This document shows positions 1,858 to 11,200 of a DNA stretch of 14,260 nt, piece by piece (the first letter of the stretch is position 1; every line of letters starts with the position of its first letter). The DNA lies in IMG/VR virus record IMGVR_UViG_2706794689_000016. One strand, given 5' to 3'. The stretch is from a virus. Lineage: Duplodnaviria > Heunggongvirae > Uroviricota > Caudoviricetes. The position numbers and the translations under genes were made by a program. The notes under the pieces were generated by a model, which saw nothing but the letters and a program-made list of their open reading frames with translations, had not been told where the DNA came from and did no database searches.

Positions 1858-2692
1858 TTATTCCTCTGAATTATCGATTACACTGTATTCCCCGGTTAAT
1901 ACAGAGGAATCTGCAGGATCGATTGTCAGTGGTTCCTTTTCATCCATTGATACTGCACGCTGGATCTCAATTGATACGGGCAGATATTTGAACAGGCGAC
2001 GAATAGCCGTTTTCTTTGCCATTTCTTCCCAGTGAGTTACCCACGGCCCGTTATTACCAGCTTTACTCTGGCTGCGCACCAGCTCAATCTGTTTGCGCGT
2101 CATAACTTCAAACTGAGTACCTCCGTCTTTCAGTCTTGCGACAGCATAGACGTGGGTAACAGGGGCATCTTCGTTTTCTCCTGGGCGGTGTATTAACTTT
2201 TCATCAAGGCCAAATTCGAAATTAAACTCGTCACCTTCACGGACAACACGGGCTGACAGGCTGGCGATTTGACCTGAACGGCGAGCCAGATCAATCATGC
2301 CGCGATAGCNNNNNNNNNNNNNNNNNNNNNNNNNNNNNNNNNNNNNNNNNNNNNNNNNNNNNNNNNNNNNNNNNNNNNNNNNNNNNNNNNNNNNNNNNNN
2401 NNNNNNNNNNNNNNNNNNNNNNNNNNNNNNNNNNNNNNNNNNNNNNNNNNNNNNNNNNNNNNNNNNNNNNNNNNNNNNNNNNNNNNNNNNNNNNNNNNNN
2501 NNNNNNNNNNNNNNNNNNNNNNNNNNNNNNNNNNNNNNNNNNNNNNNNNNNNNNNNNNNNNNNNNNNNNNNNNNNNNTCATTGATGGCTGGTTAATAAAA
2601 CTAATCACGTCGTTATTTTTAATTGCTGCTGGTGCACGGTTTCCCTGAGTTTTTTGCAGATCGGCTTTTGCGATTGGTGGTTGCTTAGTCAT
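1858..2692 (-). CDS. recT: RecT single-strand annealing protein (interrupted by masked run 2310-2577)
   Basis: N-terminus [38 protein letters not shown] and C-terminus …[29 protein letters not shown]…VIDNSEE* both recognisable as RecT; stop TAA at 1858-1860; start ATG at 2692..2690 with AAGGAA SD 8 nt upstream. Frame does not match across the mask (835 nt span), attributed to the mask. Confidence 0.93.
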
Positions 2693-5173
2693 TTGCATAT
2701 TCCTTAGCCCAGCGGGGCAGTGATAACGTCTTAATAGCTGGCCATTCATCGGTATTGAGGCAGTCAGCCAGGGTTCGCAGATTGCGGTGATATTCCAGCT
2801 GACCTGCCAGTTTTGCTTCTTCGCCCATCATGAAAATTNNNNNNNNNNNNNNNNNNNNNNNNNNNNNNNNNNNNNNNNNNNNNNNNNNNNNNNNNNNNNN
2901 NNNNNNNNNNNNNNNNNNNNNNNNNNNNNNNNNNNNNNNNNNNNNNNNNNNNNNNNNNNNNNNNNNNNNNNNNNNNNNNNNNNNNNNNNNNNNNNNNNNN
3001 NNNNNNNNNNNNNNNNNNNNNNNNNNNNNNNNNNNNNNNNNNNNNNNNNNNNNNNNNNNNNNNNNNNNNNNNNNNNNNNNNNNNNNNNNNNNNNNNNNNN
3101 NNNNNNNNGTAAATTGATGATTCAGCGTGTCCGGCGCTTTCAACAAGCCATTGCCCCAGCGGCAAAGCCATAACGCTCTGATACATGAGTTCAATTTTCC
3201 GGCCTTCTTCGGCAGTGATAACCGTTTTTCCTGTGCTTGCGCATTCCCTCAGAAACGCTTTCTCTTCTTCTTTTCCGGAGTTTGTCCGGCGGTTAAATTC
3301 AGGTGCTACGATAAAGCGGTTACTGAATTCTTCCGGCTCAAGTACCCGGCNNNNNNNNNNNNNNNNNNNNNNNNNNNNNNNNNNNNNNNNNNNNNNNNNN
3401 NNNNNNNNNNNNNNNNNNNNNNNNNNNNNNNNNNNNNNNNNNNNNNNNNNNNNNNNNNNNNNNNNNNNNNNNNNNNNNNNNNNNNNNNNNNNNNNNNNNN
3501 NNNNNNNNNNNNNNNNNNNNNNNNNNNNNNNNNNNNNNNNNNNNNNNNNNNNNNNNNNNNNNNNNNNNNNNNNNNNNNNNNNNNNNNNNNNNNNNNNNNN
3601 NNNNNNNNNNCCGCCAGTCTGGCCGCAGGCATTGCAGGCTATTTCCGGTTCCTGTTGCACTACTGGCTCAGGTTGATTCATATCCGGGCTGGTTTTTTCC
3701 GTTTCTGGCTGGTTCTGGTACACACAATCGCGAGTCTGGATCCCCTTTACCCATTTCGGATCGTTCGGGTCGCTAATTCCGTCAACAAATTCACCACGTG
3801 ATGCAGCAAGCAATTTATCGGCATCGACAGGATTTTTTGATGGAATGTTTTTCCGGGCTTCATGGAGTTCTGCCCGCAGTTCCTGATATTTCGCATCAAC
3901 AGAATTTACCTGTGACTGAGCATCCAGCGGCTGCGTGTCCTGATGATGTTCAGTTGCGTCCGGTTCCATTGTTTCAGCCTCTCCCTGTTCAACTGCCGTT
4001 GTTCCAGATGGTTGCGGTTTTTCTTCATCATCCTGTTTTCCTTCTTCTGTTACTCGCTGCGGCATCGGGGCAGAGGAGCGACCGCAGGCAATATCCACGA
4101 TTTCCGGATCAGGGTTGGCATGATCGGTTTCAGTCAGTACTTTGTTCAGATATTCAGTGACGTGCGCGGGGATGACCTCGATCCCAATTGGTGCTTCTTT
4201 TACGGACGCAACCACGATGGCGCGGGAATAATCCAGCCCGCCAGGCATGGTGATGAATTTGTCGCGGAAAACAGAAAAGGGCGGTTTATTTTCAGCGATA
4301 ATTTCCTCAATGCGTTTAGCGTGTGCCGGATGAAGGTTATAGATGTCCAGATCCATTGAACGGGCCAGTACGCCAGTGGCTACGTCCCGCGCCAGTGACG
4401 TCAGATCGTGTACGAAACCTTCGCCGCGATCGGTGAGGTTTCCGCCGCCAGCATTAGCACCGGAAGCCGTGCGAGTGATGTGTGAAACACGATTACCCTT
4501 CATCCACTCTTTTGTCAGCAGTCCTCGATCGGTGTAGTCAGCGTTCAGGTATGCTTCGAAAAAAGCAGTTATCAGTCCCAGGTTTGAATTACCAGGATTA
4601 GGGAAAACTTTGTCNNNNNNNNNNNNNNNNNNNNNNNNNNNNNNNNNNNNNNNNNNNNNNNNNNNNNNNNNNNNNNNNNNNNNNNNNNNNNNNNNNNNNN
4701 NNNNNNNNNNNNNNNNNNNNNNNNNNNNNNNNNNNNNNNNNNNNNNNNNNNNNNNNNNNNNNNNNNNNNNNNNNNNNNNNNNNNNNNNNNNNNNNNNNNN
4801 NNNNNNNNNNNNNNNNNNNNNNNNNNNNNNNNNNNNNNNNNNNNNNNNNNNNNNNNNNNNNNNNNNNNNNTTGATAGTGAGCGTTGTCTGGTGCTGCTCC
4901 CGGTTTTAGTTCCCATGTCATGGAGTCTTTGCTGAGTTGATAGCGTTCACTCCAGGTAAAATCGATCTCACCTTCAGCGGGCAGGTCATTAACGACAGGA
5001 AAATTCGTGGCAACAGCTTTAAAATAGCTGCTCAGTTTTTTACCTGACTTAACGATCAGGTAGTCCAGAGTGGCACAGGTCGATTCAAAATCGTTGCTTG
5101 CCCACAGGACGACGTCAGGTTCACCGGATGATTTTTTCGCTTTCCGTAACAGGAAGAGTGGTTTTGTGCTCAT
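2685..5173 (-). CDS. recE: RecE exonuclease VIII (interrupted by masked runs 2839-3108, 3351-3610, 4615-4870)
   Basis: N-terminus [46 protein letters not shown]…, middle block …[33 protein letters not shown]… and C-terminus …[51 protein letters not shown] recognisable as RecE. The stop TAA 2685-2687 overlaps the recT start in the arrangement AATGACTAA (coupled genes). Confidence 0.93.
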
Positions 5174-7108: not shown

Positions 7109-7243
7109 TCACATCTTGTTGCTGTGTATAGCGACTTCTGCCTGCCAGAGATCCCAGTCGTTGCTGCGTAAAGCCTGCACAGCCTGGTTGTAAGTGATAC
7201 CGCAACAATCCATCAAATACTGAACTACTTCGTAATGCACCAT
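7109..7243 (-). CDS. ydaG: YdaG, small Rac protein of unknown function, 44 aa
   Basis: ATG 7243..7241 preceded by GGGGAGAG SD; product MVHYEVVQYLMDCCGITYNQAVQALRSNDWDLWQAEVAIHSNKM; the 60-aa track ORF starting at 7291 is an upstream extension without an SD. Confidence 0.8.
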   Translation of the reverse strand: MVHYEVVQYLMDCCGITYNQAVQALRSNDWDLWQAEVAIHSNKM

Positions 7244-7410
7244 CTTATCTCTCCCCTTAACGCCGGGTGGCGGAACTGAAACCTGCTGCACTGCAAAATC
7301 TGAACCCTGCCGTCATGTTCATACGCCTCGGGCTGGCTACTTAACCCCTGACCACTGCCTGGTAACTCGAAGTATTGCCCTGCGTTCTGTGGGGCGGGGT
7401 GGGTTGGTAG

Positions 7411-7465
7411 GTATATAATGTACTTTGTGTTCATTGATGTAAAGTACTATAAGTACATTTTGTGT
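7411..7465 (-). promoter_or_regulatory. Candidate leftward (pL-like) promoter with an inverted pair of the ATGTACT motif
   Basis: Minus strand TTTACA (7443..7438) - 17 nt - CATTAT (7420..7415); 9-bp inverted repeat AATGTACTT (7417-7425) / AAGTACATT (7451-7459) brackets the promoter; a perfect TATAAT also reads on the plus strand at 7414-7419. Confidence 0.4.
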
Positions 7466-7533
7466 GTAAAAAAATGAGATGGGATAAAGTGAAGCACAAA
7501 CCCGGAGGGGGACGCTACCGGATTTATGCTGGT

Positions 7534-7953
7534 TTAAGAGGCTTTTTGTTTTTTCTTTCGTGCTAGCTCTTCGTAAATTGCATTGTACTTCTGTTTTTTC
7601 TCCTCAAGAGTTTTTAAAAGTTCATCTGTCTCACTGTCAGGGAGCTCGTCCAGAAGGTCAATGATGATTTTTTGTCTTGGATTTAACTCCTGATAGAAAC
7701 GTACCTGTCCACTTTCTTCTGTATCCTCTCCCAAAAGATAGGTTGGTGTTGTTCCAATGAGTGTTGCTAATTCCCTTAATTTCTCTCGGCGAGGAATTGT
7801 TTCGCCATTAAACCATTTGCTAACCGCTTTTGGTGTTAATTTCATTCGACGGGCAATTTCTGCCTGCCTTCCATGTTGTTCATAACCAGCGTTTTCACAG
7901 GCTAGCGCAAGCCTACTGGCGAACTCTTTACGCGCTTTATCTTCATGAACCAT
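7534..7953 (-). CDS. racR: RacR, cI-like HTH_XRE prophage repressor
   Basis: Product MVHEDKARKEFASRLALACENAGYEQHGRQAEIARRMKLTPKAVSKWFNGETIPRREKLRELATLIGTTPTYLLGED… has a clear helix-turn-helix; divergent from ydaS. Start is ATG 7953 (139 aa) or GTG 7971 (145 aa); neither has an SD. Confidence 0.8.
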   Translation of the reverse strand: MVHEDKARKEFASRLALACENAGYEQHGRQAEIARRMKLTPKAVSKWFNGETIPRREKLRELATLIGTTPTYLLGEDTEESGQVRFYQELNPRQKIIIDLLDELPDSETDELLKTLEEKKQKYNAIYEELARKKKQKAS

Positions 7954-7971
7954 AAGTTCAATGATATTCAC

Positions 7972-8032
7972 TCTTGAATGTACTGTCAGTTCTGTTATAG
8001 CATGTACTCAAAGTTCACATTGTGAGGGTGAT
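7972..8032 (+). promoter_or_regulatory. racR-ydaS divergent control region: candidate rightward promoter for ydaS with two direct ATGTACT operator-like motifs
   Basis: TTGAAT (7974-7979) - 16 nt - TATAGC (7996-8001); ATGTACT at 7978-7984 overlaps the -35 and at 8002-8008 overlaps the -10/start region; followed by the ydaS SD. Confidence 0.5.
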
Positions 8033-8287
8033 ATGAACCAGAAAACACTTGAAGATGTAATCAAAACTGTTCGCGTTTCTGTTGTGGCCGACGTTTGTGG
8101 TGTCAGCCAAAGAGCAATCTACAAATGGATGGATAACGGAAAATTGCCTCGCACAGAATATACCGGCGAAACAAATTACGCTGAAAAAATCGCTCATGCA
8201 TCAAACGGATTATTTTCTGCTGATGTAATTTTAACTATTGGCAGAAATAAAACTACTACGAAAAAGCTGATGGGAGTTGATTCATGA
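8033..8287 (+). CDS. ydaS: YdaS, Cro-like small DNA-binding protein
   Basis: ATG 8033-8035 with GAGGGTG SD; product MNQKTLEDVIKTVRVSVVADVCGVSQRAIYKWMDNGKLPRTEYTGETNYAEKIAHASNGLF…; stop TGA overlaps the ydaT ATG (ATGA). Confidence 0.8.
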   Translation: MNQKTLEDVIKTVRVSVVADVCGVSQRAIYKWMDNGKLPRTEYTGETNYAEKIAHASNGLFSADVILTIGRNKTTTKKLMGVDS

Positions 8288-8710
8288 AAATCAAGCATGA
8301 GCACATCGAGTCAGTGTTGTTAGCCCTGGCAGCCGAAAAAGGGCAGGCATGGGTAGCCAATGCCATTACTGAAGAATATCTGCGCCAGGGGGGCGGCGAA
8401 TTGCCCCTGGTACCAGGCAAGGACTGGAATAATCAGCAGAATATCTATCACCGTTGGTTGAAAGGTGAAACGAAAACGCAAAGAGAAANNNNNNNNNNNN
8501 NNNNNNNNNNNNNNNNNNNNNNNNNNNNNNNNNNNNNNNNNNNNNNNNNNNNNNNNNNNNNNNNNNNNNNNNNNNNNNNNNNNNNNNNNNNNNNNNNNNN
8601 NNNNNNNNNNNNNNNNNNNNNNNNNNNNNNNNNNNNNNNNNNNNNNNNNNNNNNNNNNNNNNNNNNNNNNNNNNNNNNNNNNNNNNNNNNNNNNNNNNNN
8701 NNNNNNNNNN
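8284..8710 (+). CDS. ydaT: YdaT; 3' end lies in masked run 8489-8760, end coordinate estimated
   Basis: ATG 8284 with GGGAG SD 8 nt upstream, overlapping the ydaS stop; N-terminus MKIKHEHIESVLLALAAEKGQAWVANAITEEYLRQGGGELPLVPGKDWNNQQNIYHRWLKGETKTQRE recognisable as Rac YdaT. Confidence 0.7.
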
Positions 8711-8788: not shown

Positions 8789-9595
8789 ATGGCCGCATTA
8801 CCATACATGCAACTGTACATAGCTGATTACCTGGCTGACACCATGCATTTGTCAGCAGAGGAGCATGGTGCGTATTTGTTGCTGATGTTCAATTACTGGC
8901 AAACAGGAAAGCCAATACCTAAAAACAGGCTGGCAAAAATTGCCCGTCTGACTAACGAGCGATGGGCTGATGTTGAACCATCCTTGCAGGAGTTTTTTTG
9001 CGATAACGGCGAGGAATGGGTGCATCTTCGGATTGAGGAAGATCTGGCATCAGTCAGGGAAAAATTAACCAAAAAATCAGCCGCAGGAAAAGCATCTGTT
9101 CAGGCCAGAAGAAGCAGAAAGGAAGCAGATGTTCAAACAAAACAAGAGAGAAATTTAACAGGTGTTCAAACAGATGTTGAAGTGGTGTTTGAACATGATG
9201 TCAACACAAAGGCAACTAATAAAGATACAGNNNNNNNNNNNNNNNNNNNNNNNNNNNNNNNNNNNNNNNNNNNNNNNNNNNNNNNNNNNNNNNNNNNNNN
9301 NNNNNNNNNNNNNNNNNNNNNNNNNNNNNNNNNNNNNNNNNNNNNNNNNNNNNNNNNNNNNNNNNNNNNNNNNNNNNNNNNNNNNNNNNNNNNNNNNNNN
9401 NNNNNNNNNNNNNNNNNNNNNNNNNNNNNNNNNNNNNNNNNNNNNNNNNNNNNNNNNNNNNNNNNNNNNNNNNNNNNNNNNNNNGAATACCAGGGCTTGT
9501 TCGCGCCGAAAGGTGTTCGACCTGAGACGTTACTCCGACAGGTTAACACCGTCTCGTTACCGGATAGTGCGATCCCGCCAGGCTTCAGGGGGTAA
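8789..9595 (+). CDS. ydaU: YdaU, DUF1376-family phage replication-associated protein (masked run 9231-9484 inside)
   Basis: ATG 8789 (MAALPYMQLYIADYLADTMHLSAEEHGAYLLLMFNYWQTGKPIPKNRLAKIARLTNERWADVEPSLQEFF…), C-terminus …EYQGLFAPKGVRPETLLRQVNTVSLPDSAIPPGFRG*, stop TAA 9593-9595. Start could lie further upstream inside the mask. Confidence 0.75.
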   Translation: MAALPYMQLYIADYLADTMHLSAEEHGAYLLLMFNYWQTGKPIPKNRLAKIARLTNERWADVEPSLQEFFCDNGEEWVHLRIEEDLASVREKLTKKSAAGKASVQARRSRKEADVQTKQERNLTGVQTDVEVVFEHDVNTKATNKDTXXXXXXXXXXXXXXXXXXXXXXXXXXXXXXXXXXXXXXXXXXXXXXXXXXXXXXXXXXXXXXXXXXXXXXXXXXXXXXXXXXXXXEYQGLFAPKGVRPETLLRQVNTVSLPDSAIPPGFRG

Positions 9596-9890
9596 CTGAC
9601 CATGAAAAATATTGCGACAGGCGACGTTCTTGAACGTATCCGCAGACTGGCCCCGTCACATGTAACCGCGCCATTCAAGACGGTAGCGGAGTGGCGCGAG
9701 TGGCAACTTTCCGAAGGCCAGAAACGTTGTGAGGAGATCAACCGTCAGAATCGTCAGTTGCGGGTGGAAAAAATTCTGAATCGCTCTGGCATCCAGCCAT
9801 TGCACCGCAAATGCTCGTTTTCGAATTACCAGGTGCAGAACGAAGCGCAGCGATACGCGTTGAGTCAGGCGAAATCCATCGCTGATGAAC
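9485..9890 (+). repeat. Direct repeat, copy 1 (ydaU 3' end + ydaV 5' part)
   Basis: Aligns to 10363-10445 and 10705-10757 in copy 2 with offsets of 878 and 867 nt; 5 of 83 positions differ in the ydaU-tail block and 6 of 53 in the ydaV block. Confidence 0.8.
9602..9890 (+). CDS. ydaV: DnaC/IstB-like replication protein YdaV, first copy: N-terminal 96 codons visible; possibly truncated or chimeric downstream
   Basis: ATG 9602, 6 nt after the ydaU stop; MKNIATGDVLERIRRLAPSHVTAPFKTVAEWREWQLSEGQKRCEEINRQNRQLRVEKILNRSGIQPLHRKCSFSNYQVQNEAQRYALSQAKSIADE then mask; sequence after the mask is a ydaU-like C-terminal segment, not the ydaV continuation. Confidence 0.5.
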
Positions 9891-10142: not shown

Positions 10143-10480
10143 TCGCCAAAAACGAGCGTCTAAAAAATTCGAGCCGGAGGCTATTGAGCTGCCCGATTGG
10201 TTGCCGGAAACACTCTGGCATGAGTGGGTCCGGTTCAGACAGGCATTGCGAAAACCGATTCGAACGGAGCAGGGCGCTAACGGGGCGATACGGGAACTGG
10301 AAAAATTCCGTCAGCAGGGTTTTACACCTGAGCAGGTGATTCGACACAGCATCGCCAATGAATACCAGGGCCTGTTCGCGCCGAAAGGTGTTCGGCCTGA
10401 GACGTTGCTCCGACAGGTTAACACCGTCTCGTTGCCGGACAGTGCNNNNNNNNNNNNNNNNNNNNNNNNNNNNNNNNNNN
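10143..10480 (+). CDS. Second copy of the YdaU C-terminal region (DUF1376 C-terminal segment); both ends masked, may be a gene fragment or part of a fusion
   Basis: Frame beginning at 10143 reads …RPKRASKKFEPEAIELPDWLPETLWHEWVRFRQALRKPIRTEQGANGAIRELEKFRQQGFTPEQVIRHSIANEYQGLFAPKGVRPETLLRQVNTVSLPDS…; its tail is identical in protein to the ydaU tail at 9485-9568. Confidence 0.5.
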
Positions 10481-10765
10481 NNNNNNNNNNNNNNNNNNNN
10501 NNNNNNNNNNNNNNNNNNNNNNNNNNNNNNNNNNNNNNNNNNNNNNNNNNNNNNNNNNNNNNNNNNNNNNNNNNNNNNNNNNNNNNNNNNNNNNNNNNNN
10601 NNNNNNNNNNNNNNNNNNNNNNNNNNNNNNNNNNNNNNNNNNNNNNNNNNNNNNNNNNNNNNNNNNNNNNNNNNNNNNNNNNNNNNNNNNNNNNNNNNNN
10701 NNNNGAACGACGGCCAGCGATACGCGTTAAGCCAGGCGAAATCCATCGCCGATGAACTGATGACC
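10363..10765 (+). repeat. Direct repeat, copy 2 (ydaU-like tail + ydaV-like segment)
   Basis: See copy 1; visible parts 10363-10445 and 10705-10757, interior masked by run 10446-10704. Confidence 0.8.
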
Positions 10766-11200
10766 GGGTGTACAAATTTTGCGTTCAGCGGAAAACCTGG
10801 TACCGGGAAGAATCACTTAGCGGCAGCTATCGGGAATCGCCTGCTGAAAGACGGTCAGACAGTGATTGTGGTTACCGTGGCTGATGTTATGAGCGCCCTG
10901 CACGCCAGCTATGACGACGGGCAGTCAGGCGAAAAATTTTTGCGGGAGCTGTGCGAAGTGGATCTGCTGGTTCTTGATGAAATTGGCATTCAGCGCGAGA
11001 CGAAAAACGAGCAGGTGGTGCTGCACCAGATTGTTGATCGCCGGACAGCGTCGATGCGCAGCGTGGGGATGCTGACAAACCTGAACTATGAGGCCATGAA
11101 AACNNNNNNNNNNNNNNNNNNNNNNNNNNNNNNNNNNNNNNNNNNNNNNNNNNNNNNNNNNNNNNNNNNNNNNNNNNNNNNNNNNNNNNNNNNNNNNNNN
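10470..11200 (+). CDS. ydaV: DnaC/IstB-like AAA+ helicase-loader (YdaV-like), second copy; Walker A and B present; both ends masked
   Basis: Visible 10705-11103: …NDGQRYALSQAKSIADELMTGCTNFAFSGKPGTGKNHLAAAIGNRLLKDGQTVIVVTVADVMSALHASYDDGQSGEKFLRELCEVDLLVLDEIGIQRETKNEQVVLHQIVDRRTASMRSVGMLTNLNYEAMKT; Walker A GKPGTGKN, Walker B LLVLDE. Start and end positions estimated. Confidence 0.6.

Follow-up and report, generated by a model that had tools for sequence, protein, structure and literature searches.

What is the recurring unit behind four copies of ATGTACT that flank a small repressor gene in a Rac-like prophage, and which protein would read it? An earlier note on the window (the whole stretch of 14,260 bp that was analyzed) named the gene racR and its divergent neighbor ydaS and proposed that the copies mark operators in an OL/OR-like arrangement. 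The copies lie where they had been placed, at 7418-7424 (plus strand), 7452-7458 (minus strand), 7978-7984 (plus strand) and 8002-8008 (plus strand), and the heptamer occurs nowhere else in the window. The inverted 9-bp pair at 7417-7425 and 7451-7459 is also present and 100% complementary, and the gene between the two clusters is indeed 420 bp long (7534-7953, minus strand). The OL/OR-like arrangement around a small HTH repressor gene is therefore real, and it is conserved wherever the same DNA-binding domain occurs. The two gene names, in contrast, could not be kept. As set out below, the sites are very probably five operators of the form TGWAC-N5-GTWCA in an HK022-type lambdoid immunity region, which entered this Rac-like prophage as an 868-bp cassette in place of racR-ydaS.

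Four copies of one heptamer in about 600 bp had been judged unlikely to arise by chance. This is so for ATGTACT itself, which is expected 0.76 times per window and reached four copies in 3 of 200 shuffles, but it is not so when any heptamer may count. We consider the latter to be the fairer null, and with strands pooled some heptamer had at least four copies in 235 of 2,000 dinucleotide-preserving shuffles of the 622-bp region; because of this result, the heptamer count alone is weak evidence. Alignment of the four copies shows that each ATGTACT is followed by four variable bases and then by GTTC or GTAC. The heptamer can be recognized as the extended, better-conserved half-site (A-TGTAC-T) of a 15-bp pseudo-palindrome, TGWAC-N5-GTWCA. 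With at most one mismatch allowed, this pattern has six matches in the window, five of them within 7419-8017. Six matches were found in none of 200 shuffles of the window and five in none of 2,000 shuffles of the 622-bp region (maximum, two); the pattern was derived from these very sites, and its independent support comes from the annotated operators of phage HK022 and from 11 further loci. The five sites within 7419-8017 are as follows.

7419-7433: OL1 operator, TGTACTTTGTGTTCA; in the -10/spacer of PL, holds the first ATGTACT; corresponds to HK022 oL 2201-2215
7443-7457: OL2 operator, AGTACTATAAGTACA; overlaps the PL -35, holds the second ATGTACT (minus strand); corresponds to HK022 oL 2225-2239
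7946-7960: OR3 operator, TGAACCATAAGTTCA; a perfect palindrome centered on the repressor ATG (7953..7951); corresponds to HK022 oR 3000-3014
7979-7993: OR2 operator, TGTACTGTCAGTTCT; in the PR spacer, overlaps the PRM -35, holds the third ATGTACT; corresponds to HK022 oR 3033-3047
8003-8017: OR1 operator, TGTACTCAAAGTTCA; over the predicted PR start, holds the fourth ATGTACT; corresponds to HK022 oR 3057-3071

Thus, the four heptamers are genuine half-sites, but the unit is the 15-bp pseudo-palindrome and not the 7-mer, and there are five sites in all, OR3 having been overlooked. The spacing is 24 bp between OL1 and OL2, 33 bp between OR3 and OR2, and 24 bp between OR2 and OR1. In phage lambda, the spacing of OR1 and OR2 is likewise 24 bp, center to center. 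The direct repeat on the right side had seemed unusual for a dimeric HTH repressor; with a 15-bp pseudo-palindrome as the unit, it resolves into a tandem of dimer sites at 24-bp spacing, with the stronger half-sites facing the same way round.

The suggestion that the sites overlap promoters was borne out on both sides of the gene: OR2 and OR1 overlap a rightward, PR-like promoter and OL1 and OL2 a leftward, PL-like one. The predicted promoters and the hairpin that follows the repressor gene are the following.

7415-7443, minus strand: PL-like promoter; -35 TTTACA (7443..7438), 17-bp spacer, -10 CATTAT (7420..7415), from a consensus scan
7961-7989, minus strand: PRM-like promoter; -35 CTGACA (7989..7984), 17-bp spacer, -10 TATCAT (7966..7961), 10/12 matches in the scan
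7974-8001, plus strand: PR-like promoter; -35 TTGAAT (7974-7979), 16-bp spacer, -10 TATAGC (7996-8001), TGT before the -10
7493-7530, minus strand: stable hairpin just past the repressor stop codon; RNA fold of -22.5 kcal/mol, z = -5.0, with 0 of 200 shuffles as stable

The hexamers of the PL-like promoter lie at the positions of the annotated HK022 pL -35 and -10, and TGTAAAGTAC within this promoter is invariant across 10 loci (see below); the first base of OL2, which coincides with the -35 TTTACA, is A in all 10. The PR-like promoter was read by eye from the sequence, and its hexamers are colinear with those annotated for HK022 pR (-35 TTGACT, -10 CATAAT). The consensus scan did not call it because its -10, TATAGC, a poor match to the consensus, ends in C. 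The position of the PRM-like -10 is conserved in the alignment of 12 loci. The repressor mRNA is probably leaderless, since the ATG lies 8 nt past this -10, from which the transcription start is deduced, and no Shine-Dalgarno sequence precedes it. The cI mRNA of phage lambda is leaderless, and leaderless repressor mRNAs have been reported for PaaR2 (PMC8630535) and RacR (PMC9638921). The hairpin at 7493-7530 is a possible terminator of the repressor transcript, with an imperfect U-tract; a consensus terminator scan gave nothing after the repressor gene, this hairpin included, and the search for known RNA families gave none across the window. An unannotated 69-aa open reading frame at 7225-7434 (minus strand) was set aside as spurious: it has no family match and begins with an ATG within OL1 that is upstream of where PL is predicted to start.

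An independent indication of what these sites are comes from phage HK022. Its GenBank record X16093 annotates 15-bp potential repressor binding sites at 2201-2215 and 2225-2239 (oL) and at 3000-3014 (over the cI start), 3033-3047 and 3057-3071 (oR), along with the pL and pR hexamers. The number and spacing of these core sites are the same in the window, 24 bp at OL and 33 and 24 bp at OR: the OL sites start at 7419 and 7443 here and at 2201 and 2225 in HK022, both pairs overlapping the -10 and -35 of pL, and the OR sites start at 7946, 7979 and 8003 here and at 3000, 3033 and 3057 there. OR3 is identical in all 15 positions and lies over the repressor start codon in both phages. OL1 (TGTACTTAAAGTTCA in HK022 vs TGTACTTTGTGTTCA here) and OL2 (AGTACCAATAGTACA vs AGTACTATAAGTACA) differ mainly in the spacer; OR2 (TGTACTATCAGTTCC vs TGTACTGTCAGTTCT) differs mainly in the spacer and also in the last base, and in OR1 one half-site W base differs as well. 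By this correspondence, the region is recognizable as an HK022-type immunity region, a type for which the GenBank record of 1989 already lists the operators and for which biochemical studies followed.

The earlier note had suggested looking for the motif in related prophages. We compared 12 loci, from E. coli, the O157:H7 Rac-like prophage, phage Tritos, HK022, Salmonella, Raoultella, Klebsiella and Citrobacter phages, and a P22-like phage. The repressor homologues fall into three groups: 139-aa E. coli variants (88-89% identical), Salmonella short forms (62-65% identical), and proteins that share the N-terminal domain alone (62-72% identity) and have it fused to Peptidase_S24. Three OR sites with identical spacing, OR3 being centered on the repressor ATG, are present in 12 of 12 loci, and the OL pair, spaced by 24 bp across a TTTACA -35, in 10 of 12, that is, in all that extend far enough. 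The motif is thus conserved, with an HK022-type repressor and not with racR, and the OL/OR reading withstands the comparison that the note had set for it. Among 42 unique sites, G2, A4 and C5 never change, A or T occupies position 3 and T or C position 6, and the spacers and flanks vary. Since a pattern was used to find the sites, part of this invariance is to be expected; the fixed architecture of the sites across diverged flanks does not come from the search pattern. Several loci have cargo genes in the stretch from the repressor gene to OL, which in Salmonella encode a HigB/HigA-like pair and in Raoultella and Klebsiella an AAA ATPase of 480 aa. The OL pair stays at PL even where this cargo pushes OL 1.3-2.5 kb from OR; as a result, OL and OR are separated by anything from 560 bp to about 2.5 kb. 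Analogues of OL3, a further HK022 site described below, are present in the Klebsiella and Raoultella loci.

Two proteins are encoded next to the operators and could in principle read them.

7534-7953, minus strand: repressor gene, 139 aa; HTH_3 domain at residues 1-75, flexible linker, short helical C-terminal domain
8033-8287, plus strand: Cro-like gene, 84 aa; GAGG ribosome-binding site, an annotated CDS in O157:H7

The Cro-like protein has 59% identity with HK022 Cro, 55-58% with the Cro of each related locus and 19% with YdaS of K-12; the name ydaS for the divergent gene is thus not tenable. Across the loci, the Cro proteins co-vary with the operators. The N-terminal part of the repressor belongs to the HTH_3 family (Pfam, 1.8e-9), with 47% identity to HK022 CI over residues 4-102 and 51% identity to the CI of 933W/phi24B over residues 1-73. 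Its recognition helix, TPKAVSKWFNGE, is conserved; the stretch TPKA(V/I)SKWFNGE is invariant apart from the V/I position, and T40, P41, K42, A43, S45, K46, W47, F48, N49, G50 and E51 are the same in eight homologues including HK022 CI. Biochemical work on the 933W repressor and its operators showed that positions 2, 4 and 5 are critical, that position 3 is A or T and position 6 T or C, and that K42 and K46 are the contact residues (PMC3317979); both lysines are conserved in the 139-aa repressor.

In lambdoid switches, Cro uses the same operators as CI. Here repressor and Cro-like protein alike co-vary with the sites, so that co-variation alone cannot separate the two. Conceivably, then, recognition of the sites falls mainly or entirely to the Cro-like protein or YdaT and not to the 139-aa repressor. 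We regard this as very unlikely, since the repressor has the recognition helix of HK022 CI, close to that of 933W CI, and both of these proteins bind the motif (PMC3317979, PMC8053113). Furthermore, loci L008-L010 keep the three OR sites and the repressor although no cro homologue was called there, their divergent neighbor being Q-like. YdaT of the prophage CP-933P is a CII analogue with the site TTGATT-N6-AATCAA at the end of the cro-like gene (PMC9986795); this site is present in the window, but it lies elsewhere, at 8277-8294. The 139-aa repressor thus appears to be the principal reader of the five operators.

What sets this repressor apart is its C-terminal part. No match to Peptidase_S24 was found in it, and in the alignment the S24 part and the SAGPG motif with the Ala-Gly cleavage site are missing. 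The AlphaFold2 model (mean pLDDT, 82) has a confident five-helix HTH domain at residues 1-75, a disordered linker at 77-87 and two C-terminal helices at 92-103 and 106-138. A Foldseek search of the PDB with this model returned only generic XRE-type HTH proteins (best E = 1e-3) and no informative match to the C-terminal helices, and phmmer against the PDB gave only weak matches, to the N-terminal domains of the P22 C2 and 434 repressors. Among 1.84 billion representative proteins, however, the C-terminal 62 residues have 40 matches at E <= 1e-3, nearly all of them at the C terminus of 120-185-aa proteins, and 4 of the 10 proteins checked carry HTH_3 domains that differ from the repressor's own. 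Because it is found on proteins with different HTH_3 domains, the tail looks like an exchangeable repressor module. The DNA homology to HK022 stops within the repressor gene, at about 7793, which is consistent with a domain swap.

Defective Rac-like prophages are frequent, and a protein that is 96 residues short of HK022 CI might be the product of a decayed gene without a regulatory role, the operators then being relics. Several lines of evidence make this very unlikely. The sequenced Escherichia phage Tritos has an annotated "CI repressor" with 100% identity to the short form, which is intact; short-form homologues at 62-89% identity keep the conserved C-terminal module; the module occurs on about 40 other clusters of small proteins, with HTH_3 in 4 of 10 checked; and neither the promoter hexamers nor any of the five operators is damaged. 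In addition, a query spanning the cassette (7300-8300) was covered to at least 80% in 1,047 of 5,426 complete E. coli genomes (about 19%), with identities of about 97-99.8% among the listed genome matches, and the Rac-like prophage of E. coli O157:H7 carries the same cassette.

The backbone of the prophage is that of Rac, with intR, xisR, ralR, recET, kilR, sieB and ydaF to the left and ydaT, ydaU and ydaV to the right. In a blastn comparison with the Rac prophage of K-12, identity is 99.4% up to 7409 and again from 8278, and nothing in K-12 corresponds to the intervening 868 bp.

7410-8277: 868-bp immunity cassette; PL/OL, terminator-like hairpin, repressor, OR, cro-like gene

This cassette is 82% identical to HK022 DNA over 7414-7474 and about 70% identical over 7793-8203, and it takes the place of racR-ydaS in a Rac prophage that otherwise resembles that of K-12. 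Given this backbone and the position of the gene, which is that of racR, one could take the sites for operators of RacR, the repressor of the K-12 Rac prophage. That is extremely unlikely, and we rejected it on the sequence: K-12 homology is broken exactly over 7410-8277, and the similarity of the two repressors is limited to a 33-residue HTH stretch, in which 12 residues (36%) are shared, so that the name racR does not apply either. The RacR operators have been footprinted and are conserved as WTAGGC-n3-GCCTAW (PMC9638921), a motif with ten strand-hits and a visible 3+2 layout in K-12 Rac. In the window it is absent, the one match with two mismatches lying inside a coding region and falling below the chance expectation. 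Conversely, no TGWAC-N5-GTWCA site was found near racR in K-12 Rac; the motif therefore tracks the DNA-binding domain and not the Rac backbone. The least tenable reading, that the repeats are a functionless chance feature of an AT-rich, GTAC-rich region, can draw on the ease with which some heptamer reaches four copies in the shuffles of that region, but it is ruled out by the comparative data: the 15-bp pattern count was never reached in shuffles, the sites coincide with annotated HK022 operators, and 11 other loci, diverged in their spacers and flanks, have these sites again at 24/33/24-bp spacing.

From the layout of this HK022-type immunity region, we infer binding, cooperativity, looping and the promoter controlled by each site as follows. 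Dimers of the 139-aa repressor on OR1 and OR2, 24 bp apart from center to center, would block PR, and those on OL1 and OL2, with the same spacing, the leftward early promoter PL. Repressor at OR3, which covers its own start codon and the predicted leaderless start, would lead to negative autoregulation. During lytic development, the HK022-type Cro most likely occupies the same sites. Finally, repressor oligomers may span the 560 bp from the OL to the OR pair, as they do in HK022 and lambda; such looping is plausible by analogy with HK022 CI. In lambda-type CI proteins, the S24/LexA-like C-terminal domain is responsible for dimerization, pairwise cooperativity and looping. Because this domain is absent, cooperativity and looping cannot simply be transferred to the 139-aa repressor. 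HK022 CI itself binds cooperatively to adjacent operators and forms OL-OR loops in vivo, according to PMC8053113, which cites Carlson & Little 1993.

A more tentative proposal, which we put forward as possible rather than probable, starts from the full paired-operator (24-bp) and OL/OR geometry that accompanies this S24-less repressor: the helical module itself would give dimer-dimer contacts and possibly looping, and the switch would be RecA-blind. If this were true, induction would need an antirepressor or some other route, and Rac-like prophages with the cassette, whose spanning query is covered to at least 80% in about 19% of complete E. coli genomes, would cross-repress HK022-immunity phages. 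The natural domain swap, an HK022 DNA-binding domain joined to a non-S24 helical tail, could also be used to probe the role of the C terminus in cooperativity and looping.

For annotation, the consequences are more immediate. Many E. coli Rac-like prophages carry an HK022-type immunity cassette and not racR-ydaS, which corrects a habit of naming, and the results on RacR operators, essentiality and cross-talk are therefore not transferable to these prophages. Exact operator and promoter coordinates are now given for a cassette whose spanning query reaches at least 80% coverage in the 1,047 complete E. coli genomes mentioned above, O157:H7 among them.

The relation to other well-studied switches is graded. 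The RacR/YdaS/YdaT module of K-12 (PMC9638921, PMC5700373) shares with the present locus the position in the chromosome and in the prophage, a small, probably leaderless repressor and an operator over the ATG; however, its operator, TAGGC-n3-GCCTA, is unrelated, and its repressor and Cro-like protein are not orthologous. The PaaR2/YdaS/YdaT module of CP-933P in O157:H7 (PMC8630535, PMC9986795) is similar in having a small S24-less HTH repressor, a leaderless mRNA, and OR and OL operator sets that regulate PR, PRM and PL. As a difference, the window has no toxin-antitoxin pair downstream of the repressor, although the Salmonella relatives have a HigB/HigA-like pair at that place. The PaaR2/CP-933P operator consensus, GTTTAGTAA, was also tried and has no match in the window at up to one mismatch.

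Phage 933W/phi24B (EF517298) is closer. Its repressor has a related HTH domain (51% identity over 73 residues), and its operators, arranged 3+2 with OR3 over the start of cI as here, follow a related pattern, CGWAC-N5-GTWCG/A. On the other hand, the outermost operator base is C and not T, residue 41 is Ser where the present repressor has Pro, and the OR spacing is different. An S24 domain is present in the 933W repressor, whose binding to adjacent sites is reported to be non-cooperative, and absent from the repressor described here.

The closest relative is HK022, with which the window shares the repressor DNA-binding domain (47% identity, same recognition helix), the divergent Cro (59%) and colinear pL and pR hexamers, the DNA homology spanning OL, the N-terminal half of cI, OR and cro. 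The differences lie around this core. HK022 has the accessory sites OL3 (2278, 53 bp from OL2) and OFR (3324, after cro), for which no counterpart was found in the window at up to two mismatches; its OL-OR distance is about 830 bp, compared with 560 bp here; and the surrounding phage is Rac-like here (recET, kilR, ydaT) and not that of HK022 (nun). In place of the S24 peptidase domain of HK022 CI, whose Ala-Gly self-cleavage site permits RecA-dependent induction, the repressor ends in a helical module of about 50 residues. Apart from this S24-less repressor, the locus is a textbook, well-understood lambdoid switch.

The two-plus-three layout of operators is found also in the Rac prophage of E. 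coli K-12 (L002), where it is formed by the RacR motif TAGGY-N3-GCCTA and was seen in 0 of 200 shuffles:

L002 3120-3132 and 3145-3157: pair of TAGGY-N3-GCCTA sites, 25 bp apart, 3' of racR, in the OL-equivalent position
L002 3761-3773, 3786-3798 and 3812-3824: triplet of TAGGY-N3-GCCTA sites between racR and ydaS

The OL-like pair may not yet have been described for RacR, because a text search of the study that defined the RacR operator (PMC9638921) returned neither "looping" nor "downstream of racR".

Within the window, the following features lie in the immunity cassette, at its right edge or immediately beyond PL, the predicted leftward promoter:

7109-7291, minus strand: 60-aa ORF, the first 3' of PL, with a weak match to a UBA-like domain (PF14555, E = 7.8e-5)
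7493-7530, minus strand: strong hairpin that immediately follows the stop codon of the repressor gene and precedes OL2 (-22.5 kcal/mol, z = -5)
7537-7722, minus strand: helical C-terminal tail of the repressor (residues 78-139)
8277-8294: perfect palindrome TTGATTCATGAAAATCAA, covering the stop codon of the cro-like gene and the ATG of ydaT

In the O157:H7 prophage CP-933P, the footprint of YdaT was mapped to TTGATT-N6-AATCAA, site OM, where ydaS ends (PMC9986795). The palindrome of the window matches this consensus with no mismatches and lies exactly where the immunity cassette ends on the right; it is probably the operator of YdaT, the CII-analogue of this prophage.

The hairpin behind the repressor gene is kept in phage Tritos, whose CI is identical to the repressor. 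A consensus terminator scan did not report it, and its U-tract is imperfect. It may be a terminator, stopping the repressor transcript ahead of PL. The 60-aa ORF on the other side of PL has a shorter version in K-12, and in O157:H7 it is annotated only as hypothetical.

The helical tail of the repressor is likewise C-terminal in small proteins from approximately 40 representative clusters. HTH_3 domains unrelated to that of the repressor are present in several of these clusters, which suggests that the tail is an exchangeable, uncharacterised module for repressor oligomerisation or regulation. In the replication-gene region, the K-12 targets of window segments 9485-9890, 10213-10445 and 10705-11103 overlap within ydaU-ydaV (L002 5209-6107), the first segment overlapping both of the others by K-12 coordinates, and ORFs with repeated peptide stretches occur twice; this pattern suggests a tandem duplication, the structure of which is made uncertain by N-masked blocks.

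Among loci with relatives of the repressor, three metagenomic contigs (L008, L009 and L010; about 2440-3710) are unusually compact. Each combines an S24-type relative and all three OR sites with a divergent Q-like antiterminator and, directly after it, holin and endolysin genes; gene calling on these contigs gives neither cro nor replication genes. In other relatives, the interval between the repressor gene and OL holds cargo that differs from locus to locus:

L003 3553-4220: cargo insertion
L004 3588-4255: cargo insertion
L006 3808-5250: cargo insertion
L007 2301-3743: cargo insertion

The cargo is a HigB-toxin/HTH antitoxin-like pair in Salmonella prophages and a 480-aa AAA_15/AAA_21/AAA_23 ATPase in Raoultella loci, whose OL-OR distance is equaled in a Klebsiella phage locus (L013). 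In lambda, rexAB sits at the position of this cargo. The arrangement of the cargo-bearing loci recalls paaR2-paaA2-parE2 of CP-933P.
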